In this document: positions 1 through 40,147 of the stretch, piece after piece | How positions within the stretch are numbered: position 1 is the first letter of the stretch | Layout: every line of letters starts with the position of its first letter | Virus record (IMG/VR): IMGVR_UViG_2778261267_000001 | Source of the DNA: a virus | Lineage: Duplodnaviria; Heunggongvirae; Uroviricota; Caudoviricetes | Direction: 5' to 3' (one strand) | DNA length: 40,147 bases | Notes under the pieces: generated by a model | Databases searched by the model: none | What the model saw: the letters and a program-made list of their open reading frames with translations, nothing else | What the model was told of the DNA's origin: nothing | Position numbers and translations under genes: made by a program

Positions 1-1251
1 GTGCTTACCGATACAAAATTAAAAAACCTCAAGCCGCAGGATAAACTGTACAAGGTCTCCGATCGTGACGGGCTGTATGTAGCTGTGCTTACGTCAGGTA
101 CGGTCTCGTTTCGCTACGACTACCGTATCAACGGTCGCCGCGAAACACTGGTAATTGGGCAGTATGGGCGTGACGGTATCAGCCTGGCAGAAGCGCGAGA
201 AGAACTGATTGTTGCAAAGAAGCTGCTTAAAGCAGGCCAGTCACCGGCTGCGGCTAAACGTGACGGTATCAAAAAGATCCGTGGTGCCGAGACGTTTGCG
301 GTACATACCGACAGTTATATGAAACACGTCATCTTGGCTGACAGTACCCGCGCAATGAAGCAGGCGGTGATCGACCGTGACATACTTCCGGTTCTTGGCA
401 ACAAAATGATGGCTGAAATTACCACATCGATGGTTCGTGATTTGTGTGACCGGATTGTCGAACGCGGTGGCCGTGCAACAGCAGTACAGGCCAGGGAGAT
501 CATCAGCAGCGTATACCGTCACGCCAATGACCGTGGTCATGGTTTGTTTAATCCTGCGGCTGACATTAAACCTTCGTCTATCGCCATATTTAAACCACGA
601 GAGCGAACACTGACACCAGAAGAAATTGGCCTGTTCTTCCGCACGCTGGATGCCATTGGTGCTATGGGCACTATGAAAATGGCTTTAAAGCTGGTGCTTA
701 TCACTATGGCTCGTAAAGGCGAATTCACCAATGCAACGTGGGATGAAATAGATTTTAAAAAATGGACATGGACAATTCCTTCAGACCGCATGAAGGGAAG
801 CCGGGCGCACGTTATTTACCTGCCTAAACAGGCACAGGATATATTGGTCTGGTTGCAGATGTGCGCTGGTGGAAGTGAATATCTGGTTCCTGGTCGTTAC
901 AATTTCCGTAAGCCATTATCTAATGCCGCTCTGAACTCTCTGATCGACAGAACGGTGAAAATAATAAATGAAGATGGTGAGCATATTCAGGACTTCACTG
1001 TACATGATATGCGCCGTACAGCCAGTACGTTGTTGCATGAGGCTGGTTATCCTTCAGACTGGATTGAAAAGGCTCTGGCACATGAGCAGAAAGGTGTGCG
1101 CGCCGTATATAACAAAGCGGAATACGCCAGACAGCGCGCCTACATGTTGCAGCAGTGGGCCGATATGATTGATTCCTGGATTAACGGGGAGCATACGGAT
1201 CTGATTCCGTTCTCCCCGTCGAAGTTTGAGAAGTGGATGGCGGGGGAATAA
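1..1251 (+). CDS. int: Phage integrase, tyrosine recombinase (P4/CP4-57-like with N-terminal arm-binding domain)
   Basis: 416-aa ORF with GTG start at position 1. N-terminal region resembles the arm-type DNA-binding domain of tRNA-targeting integrases; C-terminal region has an HxxR-like catalytic segment (HDMRRTASTLL). Confidence 0.88.
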   Translation: MLTDTKLKNLKPQDKLYKVSDRDGLYVAVLTSGTVSFRYDYRINGRRETLVIGQYGRDGISLAEAREELIVAKKLLKAGQSPAAAKRDGIKKIRGAETFAVHTDSYMKHVILADSTRAMKQAVIDRDILPVLGNKMMAEITTSMVRDLCDRIVERGGRATAVQAREIISSVYRHANDRGHGLFNPAADIKPSSIAIFKPRERTLTPEEIGLFFRTLDAIGAMGTMKMALKLVLITMARKGEFTNATWDEIDFKKWTWTIPSDRMKGSRAHVIYLPKQAQDILVWLQMCAGGSEYLVPGRYNFRKPLSNAALNSLIDRTVKIINEDGEHIQDFTVHDMRRTASTLLHEAGYPSDWIEKALAHEQKGVRAVYNKAEYARQRAYMLQQWADMIDSWINGEHTDLIPFSPSKFEKWMAGE

Positions 1252-2497: not shown

Positions 2498-2746
2498 TCA
2501 TGCAGCGTTGCTCACAGGACGATATACACGTTGCTGAACAGGAGGCTTTTTACCCTGGAACTCTGCCGGGCTTGCTGCCTGACGTTCATCAAGCCAACGC
2601 TCAACTTCGTCACGGTTCCATGCGCAGCGTTTGTCAGTGATATACCAGCGTTTAGGAAATTCACCTGCGCGCTCCATACGGTCGATAGTGCTCCATGACA
2701 GTGGCACCACCGCCAGGAGTTCCTTCTTACCTAATGCACCTTTCAT
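2498..2746 (-). CDS. AlpA-family HTH regulator / excisionase-like protein
   Basis: 82-aa ORF; the segment LLAVVPLSWSTIDRMERAGEFPKRWYITDKRCAWNRDEVERWL matches the AlpA/phage-excisionase winged-HTH pattern. Confidence 0.7.
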   Translation of the reverse strand: MKGALGKKELLAVVPLSWSTIDRMERAGEFPKRWYITDKRCAWNRDEVERWLDERQAASPAEFQGKKPPVQQRVYRPVSNAA

Positions 2747-3677: not shown

Positions 3678-4495
3678 ACGTACATATCCTGTTTACGTGC
3701 CCAGTCAGGGCGTTTAATAATTTCCACTCCGCCCCACTCATCGTTGATGCGGCATTCGTGATAGGTATTCAGATCCCGGCGGAACAGAGCGTGCCCGGCA
3801 TCGACATCCGGCGCATCCAGCTCGAACACGCGTACCGGATAACGACCACAATCAATGCTTTCGCTCACGGCAAGAAAGAAAAAACCATGCGGCTGACCAG
3901 TAATCCTCATTGCGCCTTCGCGGTACATTGCGTCCTGCACGTGGTAGCGGAATTCCTCTATGTGGCGTGCAAAACGGTCCATATCTGCAACCTTTTTCAC
4001 GTCGACGATCACGTTGTGCTCGTTCAGCCATTTGTCTGGACGAATGCGGCACAACTCACCAGTCTCTTCATCGTTCCAGTACATTGATGCTTCGCAGTAA
4101 CCAGGTGCTTCCAGCATCCAGCGTGCCGCCGGGTGAGCCATTGCGCTATCACGCATCAGCTCCAGTTTCCGCCACTGCTCGGCATCAAGTACCGTAATCC
4201 CCATATCCGCCACATCACGAAGAAATGCCTCTTCGTCAGCTTTACCTTGTTTCGTCCGACGATCGAATTTCGGTGAAACAATGAAGCGTTTGTCGAACTC
4301 TCCAGGCTCCAGAAGCAGACAGTGCAATGCGGTTCCCATATCCAGTGCCGACTTTTTCTCTTCGTCTTCTGGTGCTGCCTGAACCCATTTAAGAAGCGCC
4401 GGATTCTTGGCAACCATGTCCAGTTGCGACTTACTCACGCCGTCACCGGCGTGGTAGTCTTTGTTGCTGATGTTGAAATAAATTCCCGGTTTCAT
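3674..4495 (-). CDS. RecE-C-terminal-like PD-(D/E)XK exonuclease (exodeoxyribonuclease VIII-like)
   Basis: 273-aa ORF with N-terminal YFNISNKDYHAG segment and a central D...E.K-type motif (IVDVKK), as in DUF3799/RecE-like phage exonucleases; paired with the RecT-like gene. Confidence 0.7.
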   Translation of the reverse strand: MKPGIYFNISNKDYHAGDGVSKSQLDMVAKNPALLKWVQAAPEDEEKKSALDMGTALHCLLLEPGEFDKRFIVSPKFDRRTKQGKADEEAFLRDVADMGITVLDAEQWRKLELMRDSAMAHPAARWMLEAPGYCEASMYWNDEETGELCRIRPDKWLNEHNVIVDVKKVADMDRFARHIEEFRYHVQDAMYREGAMRITGQPHGFFFLAVSESIDCGRYPVRVFELDAPDVDAGHALFRRDLNTYHECRINDEWGGVEIIKRPDWARKQDMYV

Positions 4496-8556: not shown

Positions 8557-9201
8557 ATGGAAATTAATATCAAAGGATTAGTTGCCGCCGGGCATGAGAT
8601 GGCTTCGGAACTGAAAGCTGAATGTGGTGCCGTTGATATGCGTAGTGTGGCAAAGCTGCTCAGCGATTTGGCAACGCAACTGGAAGTGCAACTGGCGCGT
8701 GCTAATGCGCTGGCCGAAGACCAGCAGAAAGCGATTGAGTCAATTAAGCAGGCTGATTCGGCCGTTAAGTTGGCGCACGAGAAGTTTTCAGCGCTGGCGG
8801 CGGAGAATGAGGCGTTGAAGTCGAACCTGATTTACTGGGGCGGCGAAGATTCAGGGCCTGTCAGAAGCCCGCTTGATTACGCCCATGAAGCCGGGCTGGA
8901 ATCTGGAGAGGAGTTTGAGATGCAAGTGGCAGCCAGAATGCCGAACCTGACTTATCGCGTTGTGTCCAGTTCCCGGTTCAAAACAGAAATAGAACTGATT
9001 GGCGGATTATTGCCGGAAACCCCAGCCACCGATGCTTTCCTGGCTGAAGTGCGGGCGCAGGCGTTTAATGACCTTTGCTCGGCGTTCGTTAAACACGCGA
9101 ATTTCGCGGGAATGGATGATGGTGAGCTAGTGAGGCTTAAATATGCGACGGACGCCCTGCTGCATTGTGCGGAACAGCTTCGCAAAGGAGGCAACCAGTG
9201 A
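8557..9201 (+). CDS. Hypothetical coiled-coil phage protein (214 aa)
   Basis: ORF with RBS (GAGGG) and a heptad-rich, alanine/glutamate-rich N-terminal half. Confidence 0.55.
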   Translation: MEINIKGLVAAGHEMASELKAECGAVDMRSVAKLLSDLATQLEVQLARANALAEDQQKAIESIKQADSAVKLAHEKFSALAAENEALKSNLIYWGGEDSGPVRSPLDYAHEAGLESGEEFEMQVAARMPNLTYRVVSSSRFKTEIELIGGLLPETPATDAFLAEVRAQAFNDLCSAFVKHANFAGMDDGELVRLKYATDALLHCAEQLRKGGNQ

Positions 9202-9743
9202 GTGTAACGGTTGAAAAGATTGATGTGTTGTCATTCGTTATAACCGGTGCAGAGAGACTAGATCCGATTCGAGTGATGATTGAAAACTACGAACCTGGTA
9301 AGGGAAGAATCACCATCACCTGCTACGGAAAAGCGTGGACTGCGGCTTGGTTTGCTATGGGCGGTGATGATGTGCAGACGTTCATTAAGCGAGTCAGCAA
9401 CGACTATCTAATCGACAATTTCGACCCTCAACTGCTAAGCACGGTCGACGATGACAACGATGCAAATCTGCTTTTCGTGAAGTCAGAAATCATAAAGTTA
9501 CGAAGAGAGAGAGAAATCGACGCCGTACTGGCTCGCGAAATGTGGGACGAGGCGGAAAACGCCGATGACGTAAAAGAAAGCTGCTGCTGTTTCGGCGTCG
9601 GTAACAAACTACTGAATCTCTTTGGTGATGATCCGTGGTGTGCCAACTGGCCAACGATACCAAACCCGAAATACCAGTATCTGGAACGCGTACTTAATGC
9701 AGTGAGAGACGGCCTTAAGCAAATAGAGAAGGTGGAACCATGA
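9198..9743 (+). CDS. Hypothetical phage protein (181 aa from the GTG start)
   Basis: AAAGGAGG RBS at 9185-9192 precedes the GTG at 9198, which overlaps the upstream stop; the track's longer start at 9165 is rejected. Confidence 0.55.
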   Translation: MSVTVEKIDVLSFVITGAERLDPIRVMIENYEPGKGRITITCYGKAWTAAWFAMGGDDVQTFIKRVSNDYLIDNFDPQLLSTVDDDNDANLLFVKSEIIKLRREREIDAVLAREMWDEAENADDVKESCCCFGVGNKLLNLFGDDPWCANWPTIPNPKYQYLERVLNAVRDGLKQIEKVEP

Positions 9744-10039
9744 CTGTATGTCTTATTGATAAACGTCGACGTGGGCAACAAATACCATCTGTTGAAATTC
9801 CGAATCACACATGGTTTTGCGTACTTGATATCGATGGTATGGATACGTTGATCGACACTCGTCATTACTGCGATACCGCAACAGCTACTCCTGCAAAAGC
9901 AAAGAAAATGGCTGCTCTGATAGAAAACTGGACTCCACCTGATGGTTGGTGCAATGGGAATGATCGAGATTGGCACGAAAAAATGAAGGGCTACATCTGC
10001 GATTTCTTACGTAAATGCAACGGATTCAGGGTGATGTGA
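9740..10039 (+). CDS. Hypothetical phage protein (99 aa)
   Basis: ORF with 4-nt start/stop overlap with the upstream gene; no motif recognised. Confidence 0.5.
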   Translation: MTVCLIDKRRRGQQIPSVEIPNHTWFCVLDIDGMDTLIDTRHYCDTATATPAKAKKMAALIENWTPPDGWCNGNDRDWHEKMKGYICDFLRKCNGFRVM

Positions 10040-10040
10040 C

Positions 10041-10757
10041 ATGAGCAAGATTGACTATCAGGCACTGCGTGAGGTGGCAGAGCGTGCAATTCCGGCAATG
10101 GAACGCCTGTTAATGTTGCCAGTTGATGATGATTTGTTAACTGAACAGGAACTTAAGGATTACGGTGTGGATATTGATGCGCTCAATGCCTTCAAATTTC
10201 TGACCGGACCAGAAACCGTGCTGGCGCTGCTGGATGAACGGGAAAGAAACCAGCAATACATCAAACGCCGTGACCAGGAGAACGAGGAAATTGCGCTAAC
10301 GGTAGGGAAGCTGCGTGTTGAGCTGGAAGCCGCAGAGAACAACCTTATTGATAGTGAGTGCCATGTTGCTGAACTGGAAGAAGCGCTACGCGATAAGCAG
10401 GCGTTACCTGAAGCATCAGAGAAGCACATAGCAGAACTGGAAACAAAAGCGAACCAGCAAACCAGAATAAGCGATAAGGGGCTGACAAAGCTGATTGCCG
10501 ATGCTGACAAAATGCTGGGTATGCGTTCGCCGGTTATAGGCAGCGAGTGGTGGACGCTTTTACGGCAGTTCCTGATTGAACTTCAGGATCGCCGCAGAAA
10601 CAGCATTTCTGAATCTGGAATCCGTGCTGAAACCCTGAATGATTTAATCCGACATATTGACAGAAACCTGGATATTGACGCGATGAAATCGCCGTTTGAA
10701 CTGTCATCTGAAATTGTGGATTACGTTAATAGGCAACTGCACAAGGATAATTCGTAA
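10041..10757 (+). CDS. Hypothetical coiled-coil protein (Ea22-like character)
   Basis: 238-aa ORF with a long central coiled-coil-like segment (LRVELEAAENNLIDSECHVAELEEALRDKQ). Confidence 0.55.
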   Translation: MSKIDYQALREVAERAIPAMERLLMLPVDDDLLTEQELKDYGVDIDALNAFKFLTGPETVLALLDERERNQQYIKRRDQENEEIALTVGKLRVELEAAENNLIDSECHVAELEEALRDKQALPEASEKHIAELETKANQQTRISDKGLTKLIADADKMLGMRSPVIGSEWWTLLRQFLIELQDRRRNSISESGIRAETLNDLIRHIDRNLDIDAMKSPFELSSEIVDYVNRQLHKDNS

Positions 10758-11119
10758 TGCAGGTGGCATTTGTTGGCCTGTTACCGCATCCGATCCGCCT
10801 TTGGGCGGATATGTCACTCATAAAAACGCATTTTTTTACTACTGATGGCGGCATTCCGGCACCAAAGCGCCGTCATACCGGTATTGCAGCGGCACGACGA
10901 GCAGCAAAGAGACGCAGGAGAGCAAAGCGATGAAAAACCGTAAAGCAAAGATTCTGTTAGTTCGTAGAAACGCTCCTGGCGTCTGGTAGTGGGTGAGACT
11001 CAGCAACCGACGGATGGGGTTGATGAAATATTACGGGATGATGGATTGTGGTTTTTGCAAAAAGCCCAGCGCGGCGCAAAACCGCTGGAAAAACCACTTG
11101 CGCACTAAAGGAGAGTGAT

Positions 11120-11635
11120 ATGGCGTTAACACACCGCGAACTCTGTCAGATTGCGTATAAGTTCCTTAAGCGCAACGGGTTCAAGGTTTGTTTTCATGAC
11201 CGCTTTATAGCTGTAACCAGTACCGGAGAACAGCCAGATGCTATTGGATTCAGAAATTCAGCATCATGCCTGATAGAGGCGAAGTGTTCTCGTGCTGACT
11301 TGTTGGCAGATAGAAAAAAGCGTTTTCGTAAAAATCCATCTCTTGGAATGGGCGACTGGCGATTCTTTATTAGTGAGCCGGGAATTATTTCAGTTGAGGA
11401 TTTACCACCTGGCTGGGGATTACTTCACGTTGTTAACGGAAGAGTACGGAAAGTACATGGGTGGCCCAAGGGTAATTGCTGTTGGGGTAATCCTGACGAT
11501 AAGCCATTTACTGGAAATAAGCAGGTTGAATGCGATTACATGTTATCTGCATTAAGGCGCATGGAGTTGAGAGGGCACCTTAATGAAATATATGACGGTG
11601 TAATTGTTAATAAGAAAGAAGGAAACGCGGCATGA
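11120..11635 (+). CDS. MmcB-like PD-(D/E)XK nuclease-fold protein
   Basis: 171 aa from the ATG at 11120 with AAGGAGAG RBS. Contains a PD...E.K arrangement (QPDAIGF ... LIEAKCSRADLLAD) followed by WRFFISEP, as in MmcB/DUF1052-type proteins. Local AT enrichment. Confidence 0.55.
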   Translation: MALTHRELCQIAYKFLKRNGFKVCFHDRFIAVTSTGEQPDAIGFRNSASCLIEAKCSRADLLADRKKRFRKNPSLGMGDWRFFISEPGIISVEDLPPGWGLLHVVNGRVRKVHGWPKGNCCWGNPDDKPFTGNKQVECDYMLSALRRMELRGHLNEIYDGVIVNKKEGNAA

Positions 11636-12450
11636 TCACTATTACCAATAAGAAACAGTATCCCAGCGAGCAATATCTTAATGAGCTGATCACCAACATA
11701 GAGTTTGCTGCAAGGGCACCAGTTGAAGTCGTGAGAGCAATGGCAGCAGAGCTACAGAAGCGGCGCGAAGCTGATAGCGCAGAACCAGTTGCTTATATTT
11801 TCAAACATCCGGCCGGGAAATTATTCTGGGCTTTAACGGATGAAAGTAATAAAGAGCAAGCGGACGTTATTCCTGTTTATGCCGCCCCTCCAGTGCCAGT
11901 AGTACCTGAAGAAAAACCAATGCCTAACCCTCTTAAAATGTACGCGGTCGATGCTGTTGCCGCTATTGCAGAGGTGAGAGGCTGGAATGCCTGCCGCGCC
12001 GCCATGCTTCAGGGTAGCCAACCTGTAAGCCAAACTTACAACTTGCCAGAATTAATCGAAGGCATGGAAGTTTCCATTGATGTAAGCACTTGTGATGCTG
12101 ATTTAGGTAATCGCTATTTCGGCACCGTCACCGAGGCGTTAGAACTTGATACAGCCAAGAATGGCTACATCCTCCTGATTCAGGACGCAGAGCCAAACTT
12201 CGATGTAAATGGCAACTCTCCGGTAACTCCGGATGGTTGGATAAGCTGTAGTGAGCGAATGCCGGAAGACACCAAAATGTTACTGGCATTTAGTCAAGGT
12301 GAAATCGTGGCCGCATATTGGAACTGGGTTGTAAATCCAATTGATTACAAAAAATATAGAGCTTTCACGTATTTATCAGGACATATCTTGGATGACGTAA
12401 CTCACTGGATGCCGCTACCGGAACCGCCGCAGGAGGTTAACCGTGGCTAA
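11632..12450 (+). CDS. DUF551-domain phage protein
   Basis: 272-aa ORF; C-terminal segment WISCSERMPE...THWMPLPEPP matches the DUF551 pattern common in enterobacterial prophages. Confidence 0.6.
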   Translation: MITITNKKQYPSEQYLNELITNIEFAARAPVEVVRAMAAELQKRREADSAEPVAYIFKHPAGKLFWALTDESNKEQADVIPVYAAPPVPVVPEEKPMPNPLKMYAVDAVAAIAEVRGWNACRAAMLQGSQPVSQTYNLPELIEGMEVSIDVSTCDADLGNRYFGTVTEALELDTAKNGYILLIQDAEPNFDVNGNSPVTPDGWISCSERMPEDTKMLLAFSQGEIVAAYWNWVVNPIDYKKYRAFTYLSGHILDDVTHWMPLPEPPQEVNRG

Positions 12451-12724
12451 CCTGCAACTTGCCGTCAAAGGTGAATACTTCGATGCCATGATTCGCAGAG
12501 AGAAAACGGAAGAGTATCGCCTGTGTAATGACTACTGGAATAAGCGAATTATGTTCCGGGAGTATGACCGCCTGATTATCACAAAGGGATATCCGAAGCG
12601 CGACGATTCCAGCCGCAGAATTGATGTTCCGTATGACGGATATGAAATCAAGACAATCACACATCCCCACTTCGGCGATAAACCGGTAAAGGTGTTCGCG
12701 ATAAAGGTGAATATTGATGGCTAA
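12443..12724 (+). CDS. ASCH-domain-like small protein
   Basis: 93-aa ORF with GTG start overlapping the upstream stop; N-terminal LQLAVKGEYFDAMIRREKTEEYR resembles ASCH-domain openings. Confidence 0.5.
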   Translation: MANLQLAVKGEYFDAMIRREKTEEYRLCNDYWNKRIMFREYDRLIITKGYPKRDDSSRRIDVPYDGYEIKTITHPHFGDKPVKVFAIKVNIDG

Positions 12725-13055
12725 ATCAGCAGCAGAGCGCAAAGCCGCTCAGAGAGCCAGACAAGCTGAATCCGGTGTGCGTAAGCTGGAAATTGTGCTT
12801 GATGCTCAGGAAATTGAAATGCTGGAGCGTAACTGTGCCACGCGTCGCCCCGGGCGCGCGCCTTACGAATTTGGTGAGTATATAGCGTTACTGATCCGCC
12901 AGGATGATGCACGCGTGCGCGGGCGTATAAAATCGATCAGCAGAAAACGTTGCGGTAAGTGCGGCGAGAGAGTTCCTGTGAATTCATGCCCGTGTAATGG
13001 TGACTCGCAATGCTGGGTGACCAAAGGCTGGCATGAAACGAAATTAATAGTGTGA
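12717..13055 (+). CDS. Hypothetical protein with Cys-rich C-terminus (candidate zinc-binding regulator)
   Basis: 112 aa from ATG 12717; C-terminal CGKCGERVPVNSCPCNGDSQCW cysteine cluster. Confidence 0.5.
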   Translation: MAKSAAERKAAQRARQAESGVRKLEIVLDAQEIEMLERNCATRRPGRAPYEFGEYIALLIRQDDARVRGRIKSISRKRCGKCGERVPVNSCPCNGDSQCWVTKGWHETKLIV

Positions 13056-13072
13056 CATGTCACGAAGGTGTT

Positions 13073-13285
13073 ATGCCAAAAATACGCTACGACCTTGAAG
13101 ATATGAGAGATAACTCAGCAAATTTTCCGAAAGAGGTTAAATTTCTCATGCATAAGTATGGTTGCGCCAGGAGGGATATAGTTATCGACAGTCAGCACCC
13201 TTGCGGCGAGGATGTAATTTTCATTCGCGGTAAATGGGAAGGGTATCTTGACGAGAGTTTTTACGATGAATTTGATGGACTTTGA
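13073..13285 (+). CDS. Hypothetical small protein (70 aa)
   Basis: ORF with GAAGGTG RBS before the ATG at 13073; last gene before a strong terminator. Confidence 0.45.
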   Translation: MPKIRYDLEDMRDNSANFPKEVKFLMHKYGCARRDIVIDSQHPCGEDVIFIRGKWEGYLDESFYDEFDGL

Positions 13286-16093: not shown

Positions 16094-16170
16094 TGGCGTG
16101 GCATGCAGGATTCGAACCTGCGACCAACCGCTTAGAAGGCGGTTGCTCTGTCCAACTGAGCTAATGCCAC
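16094..16170 (-). tRNA. tRNA-Arg (anticodon UCU, decodes AGA)
   Basis: 77-nt cloverleaf folded by hand: acceptor GTGGCAT/ATGCCAC, D-stem GCTC/GAGC, anticodon stem ACCGC/GCGGT with loop CTTCTAA (anticodon TCT), T-arm GCAGG-TTCGAAT-CCTGC, discriminator G, encoded CCA. Confidence 0.85.
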
Positions 16171-35777: not shown

Positions 35778-36836
35778 TTACTTTATAAAGCGGCGACCTA
35801 TTGAAATAAAATGCTTTTCAATTAGTTCGTGCACTGCCACTGATATTATTAAGGTGATTGATAAAACTATAAACAACCTAGAAAACCCTGATGTGTTTGT
35901 GAAAATAAATGTATCGTACTTATAAATGCACTCAAGTATAATTACATGCACTATATATAATGAATAAGATATATCCCCGAGGTACTCAAGAGTGTTGCAT
36001 TTTTTTATTCCATTATTTTTTTCATACATAACTAAAATAAATACTATTAGAGCGCTTAGCCCCCCCCACTTTAATGGGCCGTGACCATAGAATAAATTAA
36101 TCTGGGATGCAATTAACGAAAATAACAGAAGCAATAGCCAAGGTGTAATTTTATTAAACAATATGGACTTGAAATCTACATGTTTGTATATTGCATATAT
36201 AATAATCCCATATACAAAATCAAGAAACATTGGTGAATAGAAAAGAGCGAATGCATTGCTTGGCGTTACGTTAACTTGTTTTGTATAAGCATCTGTAGAA
36301 ATCGAATCATTGAAATAGTAAGAGGCCACAATGAATATTACAACGATAGATAGCAAGCTAATGCATGTTCTGTATTTTTGATTGAAGGCAATAGCCAACC
36401 CAAAAATAGCATAGAATGCGATTTCATAAGTTATCGTCCATGCAGTATCAAGTAAATTGAACCCATAAAAAGGACTTCCTGCAGAATAATCGCTATGTAT
36501 TGGTATTAATGATTTTATGTATAATGAGTAACTGGATTCTGATTTAATGGTTAAGAAATAAACTGTCACGCATATTATCAGTAAAGGATAAATCCTGAAA
36601 AAACGACGAATAAAAAAATTAAATACGGCGTGCTTTTCAAGCCTTTCAGTTGAAAGGCATATTATAAATCCGCTAATTATAAAAAAAAGGTCAACACCGA
36701 AAGCCCCGTAATTGAAAAGCAAAGAACCTAGATCCTTCTGTGAGTAAACTTCATTCAAATACCACTTCGTATGATAAAGAACCACAAAAATAGAAGCAAA
36801 TCCCCTCATGTATTGTATTGAATGAACTTTGTTCAA
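35778..36836 (-). CDS. Acyltransferase family 3 membrane protein (probable O-antigen acetyltransferase, lysogenic conversion)
   Basis: 352-aa very AT-rich ORF with about ten hydrophobic segments and an N-terminal MRGFASIFVVLYH segment typical of acyltransferase_3 enzymes. Confidence 0.8.
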   Translation of the reverse strand: MNKVHSIQYMRGFASIFVVLYHTKWYLNEVYSQKDLGSLLFNYGAFGVDLFFIISGFIICLSTERLEKHAVFNFFIRRFFRIYPLLIICVTVYFLTIKSESSYSLYIKSLIPIHSDYSAGSPFYGFNLLDTAWTITYEIAFYAIFGLAIAFNQKYRTCISLLSIVVIFIVASYYFNDSISTDAYTKQVNVTPSNAFALFYSPMFLDFVYGIIIYAIYKHVDFKSILFNKITPWLLLLLFSLIASQINLFYGHGPLKWGGLSALIVFILVMYEKNNGIKKCNTLEYLGDISYSLYIVHVIILECIYKYDTFIFTNTSGFSRLFIVLSITLIISVAVHELIEKHFISIGRRFIK

Positions 36837-38380: not shown

Positions 38381-38859
38381 TCTGGGCATTCGTAAAAGCA
38401 TACCGTAATCAGTTGATTATCATGGCGGTGCTTGCTGTTCTGGTCATATCAGGAGTTGTTGCCTGGAATGTGCACGGCAGTCGTCAGTACGACGCTGGGT
38501 ATGCACAGGCGAAAGAAGACCGCAAAACCGAAGATGAGAGAGTTCGTCAGCACTACGAACAGGAGAAATCGATCAATGAACGTGAAGCGCAGCAGAGGAT
38601 CGACCAGGCGCACAATGATGCTCTTGATGCTGCCGCTCGCGCTGGCCGGTTGCAGCAACAGCTCGTTGCCATCCGTGAGCAGCTCAGGCACTATAACGCC
38701 ATTGTCGGCGCTGGGTCGTCAGCCGCAGACACCGGAGTTTTGCTTGCCGACGTGTTCAGCAAATCTCTCGAGAGAAATAGACAACTGGCAGAGTATGCTG
38801 ACCGGGCATCCGAAGCCGGAAGAGTCTGCGAAAAACAGTATGACACCCTGACCAGATAG
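38377..38859 (+). CDS. Rz-like i-spanin
   Basis: 160-aa ORF with an N-terminal TM helix and a coiled-coil periplasmic domain; overlaps the endolysin stop; contains an embedded +1-frame lipoprotein ORF. Confidence 0.7.
38576..38851 (+). CDS. Rz1-like o-spanin (lipoprotein) embedded within the Rz gene
   Basis: Alternative-frame ORF wholly inside Rz, with AGGAG RBS 10 nt upstream of the ATG at 38576, a lipobox (LALAGCS) and a Pro/Ser-rich mature part. Confidence 0.6.
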   Translation: MNVKRSRGSTRRTMMLLMLPLALAGCSNSSLPSVSSSGTITPLSALGRQPQTPEFCLPTCSANLSREIDNWQSMLTGHPKPEESAKNSMTP

Positions 38860-39004
38860 CATGGCATTTTTCATGGTACTGATTTCCTGTGACGGTATAT
38901 AAAACGGTACGAGGAAAATTTAGCTTTAGAAAAGTGTTATCACTCAATTGGTTATGGCGTCCGTAAATAATTGAGTGGGAATGATTTGATCCTGCACTAT
39001 GAAT

Positions 39005-39038
39005 GAACAAAACCCTCTGTTACTACAGAGGGTTTTTT
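39005..39038. terminator. Bidirectional intrinsic terminator at the putative prophage right boundary
   Basis: ACCCTCTGT-TACT-ACAGAGGGT hairpin flanked by AACAAAA on one side and TTTTTT on the other. Confidence 0.7.
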
Positions 39039-39076
39039 ATCTTCAAGAATCATAGGCTTGAAGTTAGTAACATCGA

Positions 39077-39616
39077 TTAATTAAACCAGCTGTCCGATTT
39101 GTTCTCTTCTGCTTTGCCCACGCTTTTCATCAGATCGCGACCGCCTTCAGTCATATTTCTGTTGGCGTCAGCTTCAGATTGCACCACATCGGTTTGCGCA
39201 GCTTTGTGCTTCAGTTCCTGATCGATAAATTCGTTTTCGCGCTTAACGCGGGCTTCTTCTTTTGCCAGCGCCAGTTTTTGTTTCTGAATCTCTAAGCTGC
39301 GTAGCTCATCTTCATAACTTTGATCGCGTTTTTTGTCCGCAGTGGCTTCGGCGTCCAGTTTATCCTGACGAGCTTTCTTATTTGCCGCTGCCGTTGCCGC
39401 TCTTTTGTTAGCGGCGGCCTGGGCATTTGCGCGACGTTGCTTCTCTTGCTGGATTTCCCTGTTGCGCTCCGCGACCCATTCGTCATGCTGCCTTTGCTCT
39501 TCATTTTTACCTTGCTGTTCCGCTTCTGCGACAGCAGAGAGTTGATCCTGCAATGATGAGGCGATAGCCGGATAGCTTAAGGAGGCTAAGATGGCGCAAA
39601 GAAAAACTTTCTTCAT
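39077..39616 (-). CDS. Exported coiled-coil protein (signal peptide; Gln/Lys/Ala-rich)
   Basis: 179-aa ORF with a signal peptide (MKKVFLCAILASLSYPAIA) and a highly charged helical body; may be host flank or prophage cargo. Confidence 0.55.
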   Translation of the reverse strand: MKKVFLCAILASLSYPAIASSLQDQLSAVAEAEQQGKNEEQRQHDEWVAERNREIQQEKQRRANAQAAANKRAATAAANKKARQDKLDAEATADKKRDQSYEDELRSLEIQKQKLALAKEEARVKRENEFIDQELKHKAAQTDVVQSEADANRNMTEGGRDLMKSVGKAEENKSDSWFN

Positions 39617-39631
39617 GACTCCTCCTGATTA

Positions 39632-40147
39632 TTAGCTCTTTTCAGGACATTTGGTATTTGGCTGAATACGCGTTTCGTTATACGTCGTGGTAATAACAAC
39701 GGCTAAACCTGTCGTAAACTGGCACTCTTTACCCACCTGGGTAGAGGTATACACTTTGGTGCCTTCCTTATAGGTTAAAGAAACACCTTCCACTAAGGTT
39801 TTATCATTCACCATAGAACCCGCTGCCGCGCCTACAGCTCCGCCGCCAACTGCACCTGCCGTCGTTCCGGAATTGCTGCCAGACCCGACGTTGTGGCCGA
39901 TAACACCGCCAGCGACTGCGCCAATAAGCGCGCCGAAGGCTTGTGCGTTCCGTTTATTTTGGGAGTTGTCTACGGCAACTTTTGCGGGAAGAATGGAAAT
40001 AATATTAACGGTTTTAGTTTCTTGTTTGGTATTCAGTTGATCGGTTTGATAAACATCGGCAGCATGATCGTCAGCATTTGACTGGCATCCTGCCAGAGTG
40101 AATGACGCTAACATTGCCACAGGCAGAAGACATTTTTTAAATTTCAT
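39632..40147 (-). CDS. Glycine-zipper outer-membrane lipoprotein (YcfJ-like family)
   Basis: 171-aa ORF starting at the last base of the window; lipobox (LAGCQ) and a GxxxG glycine-zipper block (GALIGAVAGGVIGHNVGSG) resembling E. coli YcfJ-type lipoproteins. Confidence 0.6.
   Translation of the reverse strand: MKFKKCLLPVAMLASFTLAGCQSNADDHAADVYQTDQLNTKQETKTVNIISILPAKVAVDNSQNKRNAQAFGALIGAVAGGVIGHNVGSGSNSGTTAGAVGGGAVGAAAGSMVNDKTLVEGVSLTYKEGTKVYTSTQVGKECQFTTGLAVVITTTYNETRIQPNTKCPEKS

Follow-up and report, generated by a model that had tools for sequence, protein, structure and literature searches.

The window analysed here, the whole stretch of 40,147 nucleotides, is a 39-kb phiV10-like (Uetakevirus) prophage together with its right-hand E. 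coli flank. Its first gene (1..1251, plus strand), whose GTG start codon is window position 1, has an intact open reading frame and encodes a P4-type tyrosine integrase with the Pfam domains Arm-DNA-bind_3 (the arm-binding domain), Phage_int_M and Phage_integrase; it is annotated as integrase in NZ_OZ197100.1, a near-identical lysogen in which the gene order reads guaB-guaA-int...Rz-yfgI-yfgH. A small helix-turn-helix protein of the AlpA family is encoded on the minus strand (2498..2746; Pfam Phage_AlpA, E = 3e-5) and represents a candidate excisionase (directionality factor), for which a role in excision can be proposed. At the opposite end of the prophage the last phage gene (38377..38859, plus strand) specifies an Rz-like i-spanin (Pfam DUF2514, E = 5e-40), inside which the Rz1 o-spanin, with lipobox LAGC, is encoded in the +1 frame (38576-38851); this product returned no Pfam match and is annotated at the equivalent position in phiV10 and epsilon15. 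The Rz-like gene ends at 38859 and the following gene, yfgI, ends at 39077 on the minus strand, leaving between them the 217-bp non-coding stretch after the Rz stop (38860-39076) in which the original prediction had placed the right prophage junction.

Both genes to the right of this stretch are core E. coli genes: yfgI (39077..39616, minus strand) codes for a DUF5384 protein whose signal peptide is of the ordinary kind, and yfgH (39632..40147, minus strand) for a glycine-zipper outer-membrane lipoprotein with lipobox LAGC. The two occur in 5422 of the 5426 complete genomes of E. coli, which makes them genes of the host rather than cargo of the phage. They had been described earlier as lipoprotein genes of host-like character; the host character holds for the pair and the lipoprotein label for yfgH, but not for yfgI.

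The source contig (GCA_002486075.1 / NNWL01000001.1) is identical to the window across all 4251 overlapping bases. The structural region shares ~97% identity with Escherichia phage phiV10 and its relatives (84-86% of 25 kb covered), and the prophage measures ~39.2 kb from core to core versus 39.1 kb for phiV10. Besides these structural genes (~97%), the prophage has in common with phiV10 and vB_EcoP_ZX5 (Uetakevirus) an identical 17-bp core, an attP region that is 95-96% identical, the Rz-attP-int order and the insertion between guaA and yfgI. What sets it apart from them are the early-gene modules, which are mosaic (window positions 9051-13265), whereas the att site itself shows no difference. 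Only part of this early-gene region is shared by the closest lysogen, NZ_OZ197100.1, and none of the complete E. coli genomes covers at least 80% of it. A phage tRNA-Arg gene (anticodon TCT; 16094-16170, minus strand) is located between the terminase and portal genes. As in phiV10, where an O-antigen acyltransferase gene is annotated, the window carries a gene assigned by Pfam to Acyl_transf_3 (35778-36836, minus strand) between the tail fibre and lysis genes, and the annotation of phiV10 relatives makes it likely that this is an O-antigen acetylase for serotype conversion.

The attachment core and its junctions

The non-coding stretch contains, at 38970..38986 on the plus strand, the sequence ATTGAGTGGGAATGATT, which is the attR copy of a 17-bp direct repeat and the sole copy of it in the window. 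This core comprises the final four codons of guaA (I-E-W-E) and its stop codon, followed by TT. Comparison with the sequence to the left of the integrase gene in the source contig, a check that had been suggested for this locus, identified the partner: a second ATTGAGTGGGAATGATT lies 191-207 bp left of window position 1, at the stop codon of guaA. The guaA gene of the contig stands directly left of the integrase gene, encodes 525 aa with the tail ...PPATIEWE* and ends in ...ATT GAG TGG GAA TGA TT. The attL site is thus located outside the window, as had been anticipated, and the bases bordering the 17-mer are unlike between the attL and attR copies.

Alignment with the unoccupied site led to the same boundary. 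In prophage-free E. coli the match to window positions 38800-39160 starts at query base 171, which is 38970, that is, exactly at the first base of the core. An attB rebuilt from the guaA and yfgI flanks is contiguous, with 99.7% identity, in 4463 of the 5426 complete E. coli genomes searched (counting those in which at least 80% of it was covered in one piece), and the phage-type attR junction is common to 392 E. coli genomes. On the phage side, an attP rebuilt from the Rz and int flanks is contiguous in free phages over ~100% of its length, the identities being 96.2% in phiV10, 95.6% in ZX5, 87.3% in SPN1S and 85.6% in epsilon15; in addition, several prophage-derived phage records have their ends cut at or beside the 17-bp core.

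This site has been characterized experimentally in vB_EcoP_ZX5, whose attP core is placed 190 bp upstream of int and whose attB is at the 3' end of guaA (PMC9782041). In that phage attgagtgggaatgatt was given as the attP/attB core and verified on attB, attL and attR by PCR with Sanger sequencing, and an identical core is cited there as already proven for phiV10 and epsilon15 (PMC9782041); a phiV10-related phage inserted in guaA has also been reported (PMC3293862). The window core ATTGAGTGGGAATGATT is identical to this published and experimentally established core attgagtgggaatgatt (PMC9782041).

It can be stated with high confidence that positions 38860-39076 constitute the attR (P arm, core and B' arm) of a phiV10/epsilon15-type (Uetakevirus) prophage inserted in the last guaA codons, as the original prediction had proposed for this stretch, and no evidence contradicting the assignment was found. 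All DNA to the right of 38969 belongs to the host, the DNA to the left of it is phage DNA that in free phages is contiguous with the integrase-side arm, and the guaA reading frame is complete after integration. The opposite arrangement, in which the real prophage boundary would be found elsewhere and yfgI and yfgH would be phage cargo, is so improbable as to be negligible: these genes occur in 5422/5426 E. coli genomes, where they lie beside guaA whenever the prophage is absent, free phages join the Rz end straight to the int side without them, and the direct repeat pairs with the left junction at the core and not at another place. The attR junction is therefore an already described attachment site and nothing new. 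The value of the result lies mainly in correct annotation, with the prophage boundaries now fixed to the base (core at 38970-38986, partner 191-207 bp left of the window), guaA recognized as intact, and the terminator together with yfgI and yfgH assigned to the host. The phage integrated through site-specific recombination of the tyrosine-recombinase type into the end of E. coli guaA, and excision would result from recombination between attL and attR, with the AlpA-like protein probably assisting.

The position of the crossover can be approached through a Klebsiella lysogen, MK422448.1, in which both junctions are kept (3998-4014 and ~43627-43643). This genome has ATTGAGTGGGAATGATT at attL and ATTGAGTGGGAGTAATC at attR and, because these share 11 bases only, strand exchange is placed within the common sub-segment ATTGAGTGGGA, which corresponds to 38970..38980 (plus strand) of the window. 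By analogy with this related phage from a different host, strand exchange in the window prophage would most likely also occur inside ATTGAGTGGGA. When inverted core-type sites were sought by eye around an overlap of 6-8 bp, the core displayed just the short symmetry ATT-GAGTGGG-AAT. In the MK422448.1 lysogen the phage supplies the last guaA codons, GAA TGA replacing GAG TAA, and the protein sequence is unchanged.

The guaA 3' end and its predicted terminators

The 3' end of guaA is a general and busy integration hot spot, since another island occupies it in the E. coli genome NZ_CP061754.1 (1-2500 of the locus), where genes for PIN-domain and CoiA-like proteins are found beside yfgI. Among the 5426 E. 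coli genomes up to 963 (up to 18%) do not have a contiguous attB, and ~7% have the phiV10-type prophage junction. A pattern scan in which each species was represented by a single genome also retrieved junctions of the guaA-core-P' arm type from Citrobacter, Klebsiella, Enterobacter, Serratia, Kluyvera, Scandinavium, Superficieibacter, Buttiauxella and others. Enterobacterial-type guaA 3' ends were also seen in contigs labelled Brevibacterium and Vagococcus, and in one of these contigs the stretch displayed is identical to the guaA-yfgI attB of E. coli; these cases are probably due to assembly contamination.

The host-derived B' arm (38987..39076) is native guaA-yfgI intergenic DNA, contiguous with guaA in the 4463/5426 E. 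coli genomes mentioned above. It harbours a predicted intrinsic terminator at 39009..39036, on the host side of the junction; 12 pairs form the stem, which closes a 4-nt loop, and the hairpin is preceded by an A-run and followed by a T-run. The suggestion that a strong bidirectional terminator is located here is a reasonable one: the predicted folds reach -20.1 kcal/mol on the plus and -21.1 kcal/mol on the minus strand (z ~-5.5 on both, with 0/200 shuffles as good), and on the minus strand the GC core is followed by TTTTGTT; a simple terminator scan called 39009-39036 on the plus strand only. Where the site is unoccupied, 24 nt separate the guaA stop from the hairpin and 40 nt separate the hairpin from the stop of the convergent yfgI, and the hairpin would therefore serve both genes as their shared terminator. 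In the lysogen it comes to stand behind the phage lysis genes (plus strand), the transcripts of which it would then end.

A look-alike of this terminator, AACCCTCTGTTTTTACAGAGGGTTTT, is carried by the phage P' arm and is found at attL, 46 nt after the guaA stop and ~115-190 bp left of window position 1 (source contig locus 2811-2890). It has the same stem as the host guaA/yfgI terminator, and this stem hardly varies among eight phages that come from four host genera. The phage thus seems to bring a replacement terminator for its target gene; once integrated, the phage-borne AACCCTCTGTTTTTACAGAGGGTTTT copy would terminate guaA and shield the co-directional int gene from guaBA read-through. Host B' and phage P' arms are alike in the core and the terminator stem only, and no homology between them was detected in the segment separating core and terminator (local score of 4, reached by 1997/2000 shuffles). 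The idea that the Escherichia guaA terminator is itself a relic of an old phage arm was not retained as the simpler reading, the same terminator stem being present in the native Klebsiella B' arm.

Integrase motifs, IHF-like sites and the inverted repeat

The phage-derived P arm (38860..38969) is absent at unoccupied E. coli sites, and in free phages it is contiguous with the P' arm (96% identity for phiV10, 86% for epsilon15). When the attP regions of eight Escherichia, Salmonella, Enterobacter and Klebsiella phages were aligned, invariant blocks emerged, separated by stretches that vary freely among the eight phages: TGACGGTATATAAAACGGTA at 38890-38909, TCAAT...GTTA.G at ~38944-38957, and GTAAATA joined to the core from 38963 onwards. 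The first of them, preceded by a G (G-TGACGGTATATAAAACGGTA, 38889..38909, plus strand; from 38890 on, 20 bases do not vary among the eight phages), is a candidate arm-type integrase-binding block. The 10-mer GTGACGGTAT, likewise a candidate arm-type integrase site, has four exact copies in the window, one at 38889 and three inside int (170..179 and 260-269 on the plus strand, 513-522 on the minus strand); it is also found in the P' arm upstream of int, and it is invariant on both the P and P' arms of the eight phages. When up to one mismatch is allowed, 7 matches are obtained in place of the 1.55 expected, a figure that was reached in 0/100 shuffles. In the GenBank record of epsilon15, four of these positions are labelled as integrase sites: the copies on the P and P' arms, and the equivalents of 170 and 260. 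It can thus be proposed, from sequence, that the integrase would contact the repeated TGACGGTAT arm motif through its N-terminal domain and the core through its other domains, and that the GTGACGGTAT copies inside int, two direct and one inverted, may serve as extra arm sites or in autoregulation.

This organization recalls the complex att site of the lambda type (attL = BOP', attR = POB'), with which it shares a tyrosine integrase having a separate arm-binding domain, an arm motif repeated on both arms, predicted IHF-like sites beside the core and an int gene adjoining attL. It differs from the lambda type in having a P4-type integrase, in targeting the 3' end of a protein-coding gene, which the phage rebuilds, and in carrying extra copies of the arm motif inside int, the integrase and IHF sites of the window being sequence predictions. 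Another counterpart is epsilon15 (AY150271.2), which is alike in the core, the positions of the arm motif and the terminator between core and int, and also in having predicted IHF sites over the equivalent of window positions 38938-38980. It departs from the window in overall identity (~82-86%) and in the degenerate left arm of its inverted repeat (AATTCAATA), and its sites are predictions of the GenBank record.

The inverted repeat pointed out in the original prediction is indeed present at 38941-38977, with perfect 9-bp arms (CACTCAATT at 38941-38949 and AATTGAGTG at 38969-38977) and a 19-bp spacer, and it widens to imperfect 17-nt arms (38941-38957 and 38961-38977) that are 82% complementary. 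It is not itself the att core, which is overlapped by the right arm alone, over the first 8 core bases. As a sequence feature it is just a little rarer than expected by chance: a perfect 9-bp inverted repeat with a spacer of 3-40 bp appeared in 144 of 5000 shuffles (2.9%) of the 217 bp, and the 40-kb window has 12 centres of equivalent repeats. Its meaning derives from its position at the att core and from its partial conservation.

Each arm of the repeat coincides with a sequence resembling the IHF consensus WATCAANNNNTTR. The left arm corresponds to ACTCAATTGGTTA (38942..38954, plus strand; 12/13 matching positions), which lies at a fixed offset of -28 from the core in 8/8 attP sequences, and the right arm to ACTCAATTATTTA (38964..38976, minus strand; 12/13), which overlaps the core by 7 bases and is identical in 8/8 attP sequences; the phage-specific GTAAATA adjacent to the core is invariant. 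Both coincide with two adjacent predicted IHF sites in the epsilon15 record, and the whole 350-bp attP contains 3 consensus matches versus 0.86 expected from shuffles. Our preferred reading of the inverted repeat is, on these grounds, that of two oppositely oriented IHF-like sites predicted at the junction of P arm and core, which would bend the DNA so that the arm-bound integrase reaches the core.

The same repeat might be a by-product with no function, that is, a chance or historical match of an AT-rich P-arm segment with the guaA-derived core. The frequencies just given (2.9% of the 217-bp shuffles, 12 equivalents in the 40-kb window) are compatible with such an origin, as is the finding that 5 of the 8 related attP lineages lack an unbroken 9-bp arm, owing to one G-G mismatch in 4 of them (CAGTCAATT) and to more extensive changes in epsilon15 (AATTCAATA). 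However, TCAAT, GTTA and the core-adjacent GTAAATA are invariant over four host genera whereas the neighbouring spacer is free to vary, and in 8/8 phages each arm provides a match to the IHF consensus at a constant offset, so that we regard the by-product explanation as unlikely.

Less probable still, and quite doubtful in our view, is that the repeat acts as a hairpin in the RNA, located at the 3' end of the lysis-gene transcript, for instance as a stabiliser or an RNase III target, with no protein binding at the DNA level. The hairpin is predicted to be more stable on the plus strand (-17.4 kcal/mol, z = -5.4) than on the minus strand (-11.6 kcal/mol) because G-U pairs favour the transcribed strand; 91.9% of its cells are paired across the eight phages (92.6% for the whole tested structure vs 24-44% for slid controls), and predicted RNase III sites are annotated in the att region of epsilon15. 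Those sites, however, are on the opposite side of the core, and no Rfam family matches the hairpin, the sole Rfam match being the phage tRNA-Arg. Moreover, informative covariation was absent when the inverted-repeat hairpin and a second hairpin of the P' arm were tested together on the eight attP sequences; the observed scores were reached by 225-358 of 500 shuffles and, because shuffles score equally high, this test cannot tell structure from plain conservation. The right arm is in turn fixed by the guaA coding sequence, and the pairing may thus merely reflect conservation. The pair of predicted IHF-like sites remains our preferred reading of this segment.

The second hairpin corresponds to another conserved inverted repeat, GGAATGA(23)TCATTCC, formed by the right half of the core and the P' arm (source contig locus ~2802-2837, outside the window). 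Its pairing potential is kept at 96% in the eight phages, without informative covariation. We also searched viral contigs for relatives of the integrase to see whether changes in the core are accompanied by changes in the inverted repeat; the best 80 of 364 loci were all 98-99% identical, most of them starting at the int start codon, and offered no diversity for this comparison.

Taken with the first repeat, this arrangement provides each half of the core in attP with a mirror-image copy ~20 bp off on the adjoining arm, CACTCAATT(19)AATTGAGTG on the P side and GGAATGA(23)TCATTCC on the P' side. It is tempting to speculate that such mirror-image pairs, as DNA sites or as RNA hairpins, form a device telling attP, attL and attR apart beyond ordinary IHF sites; if true, they could help to set the direction of recombination or couple recombination to transcription, but we hold this to be very unlikely. 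Integration distributes the two pairs between attR and attL, one to each, and attB contains neither.
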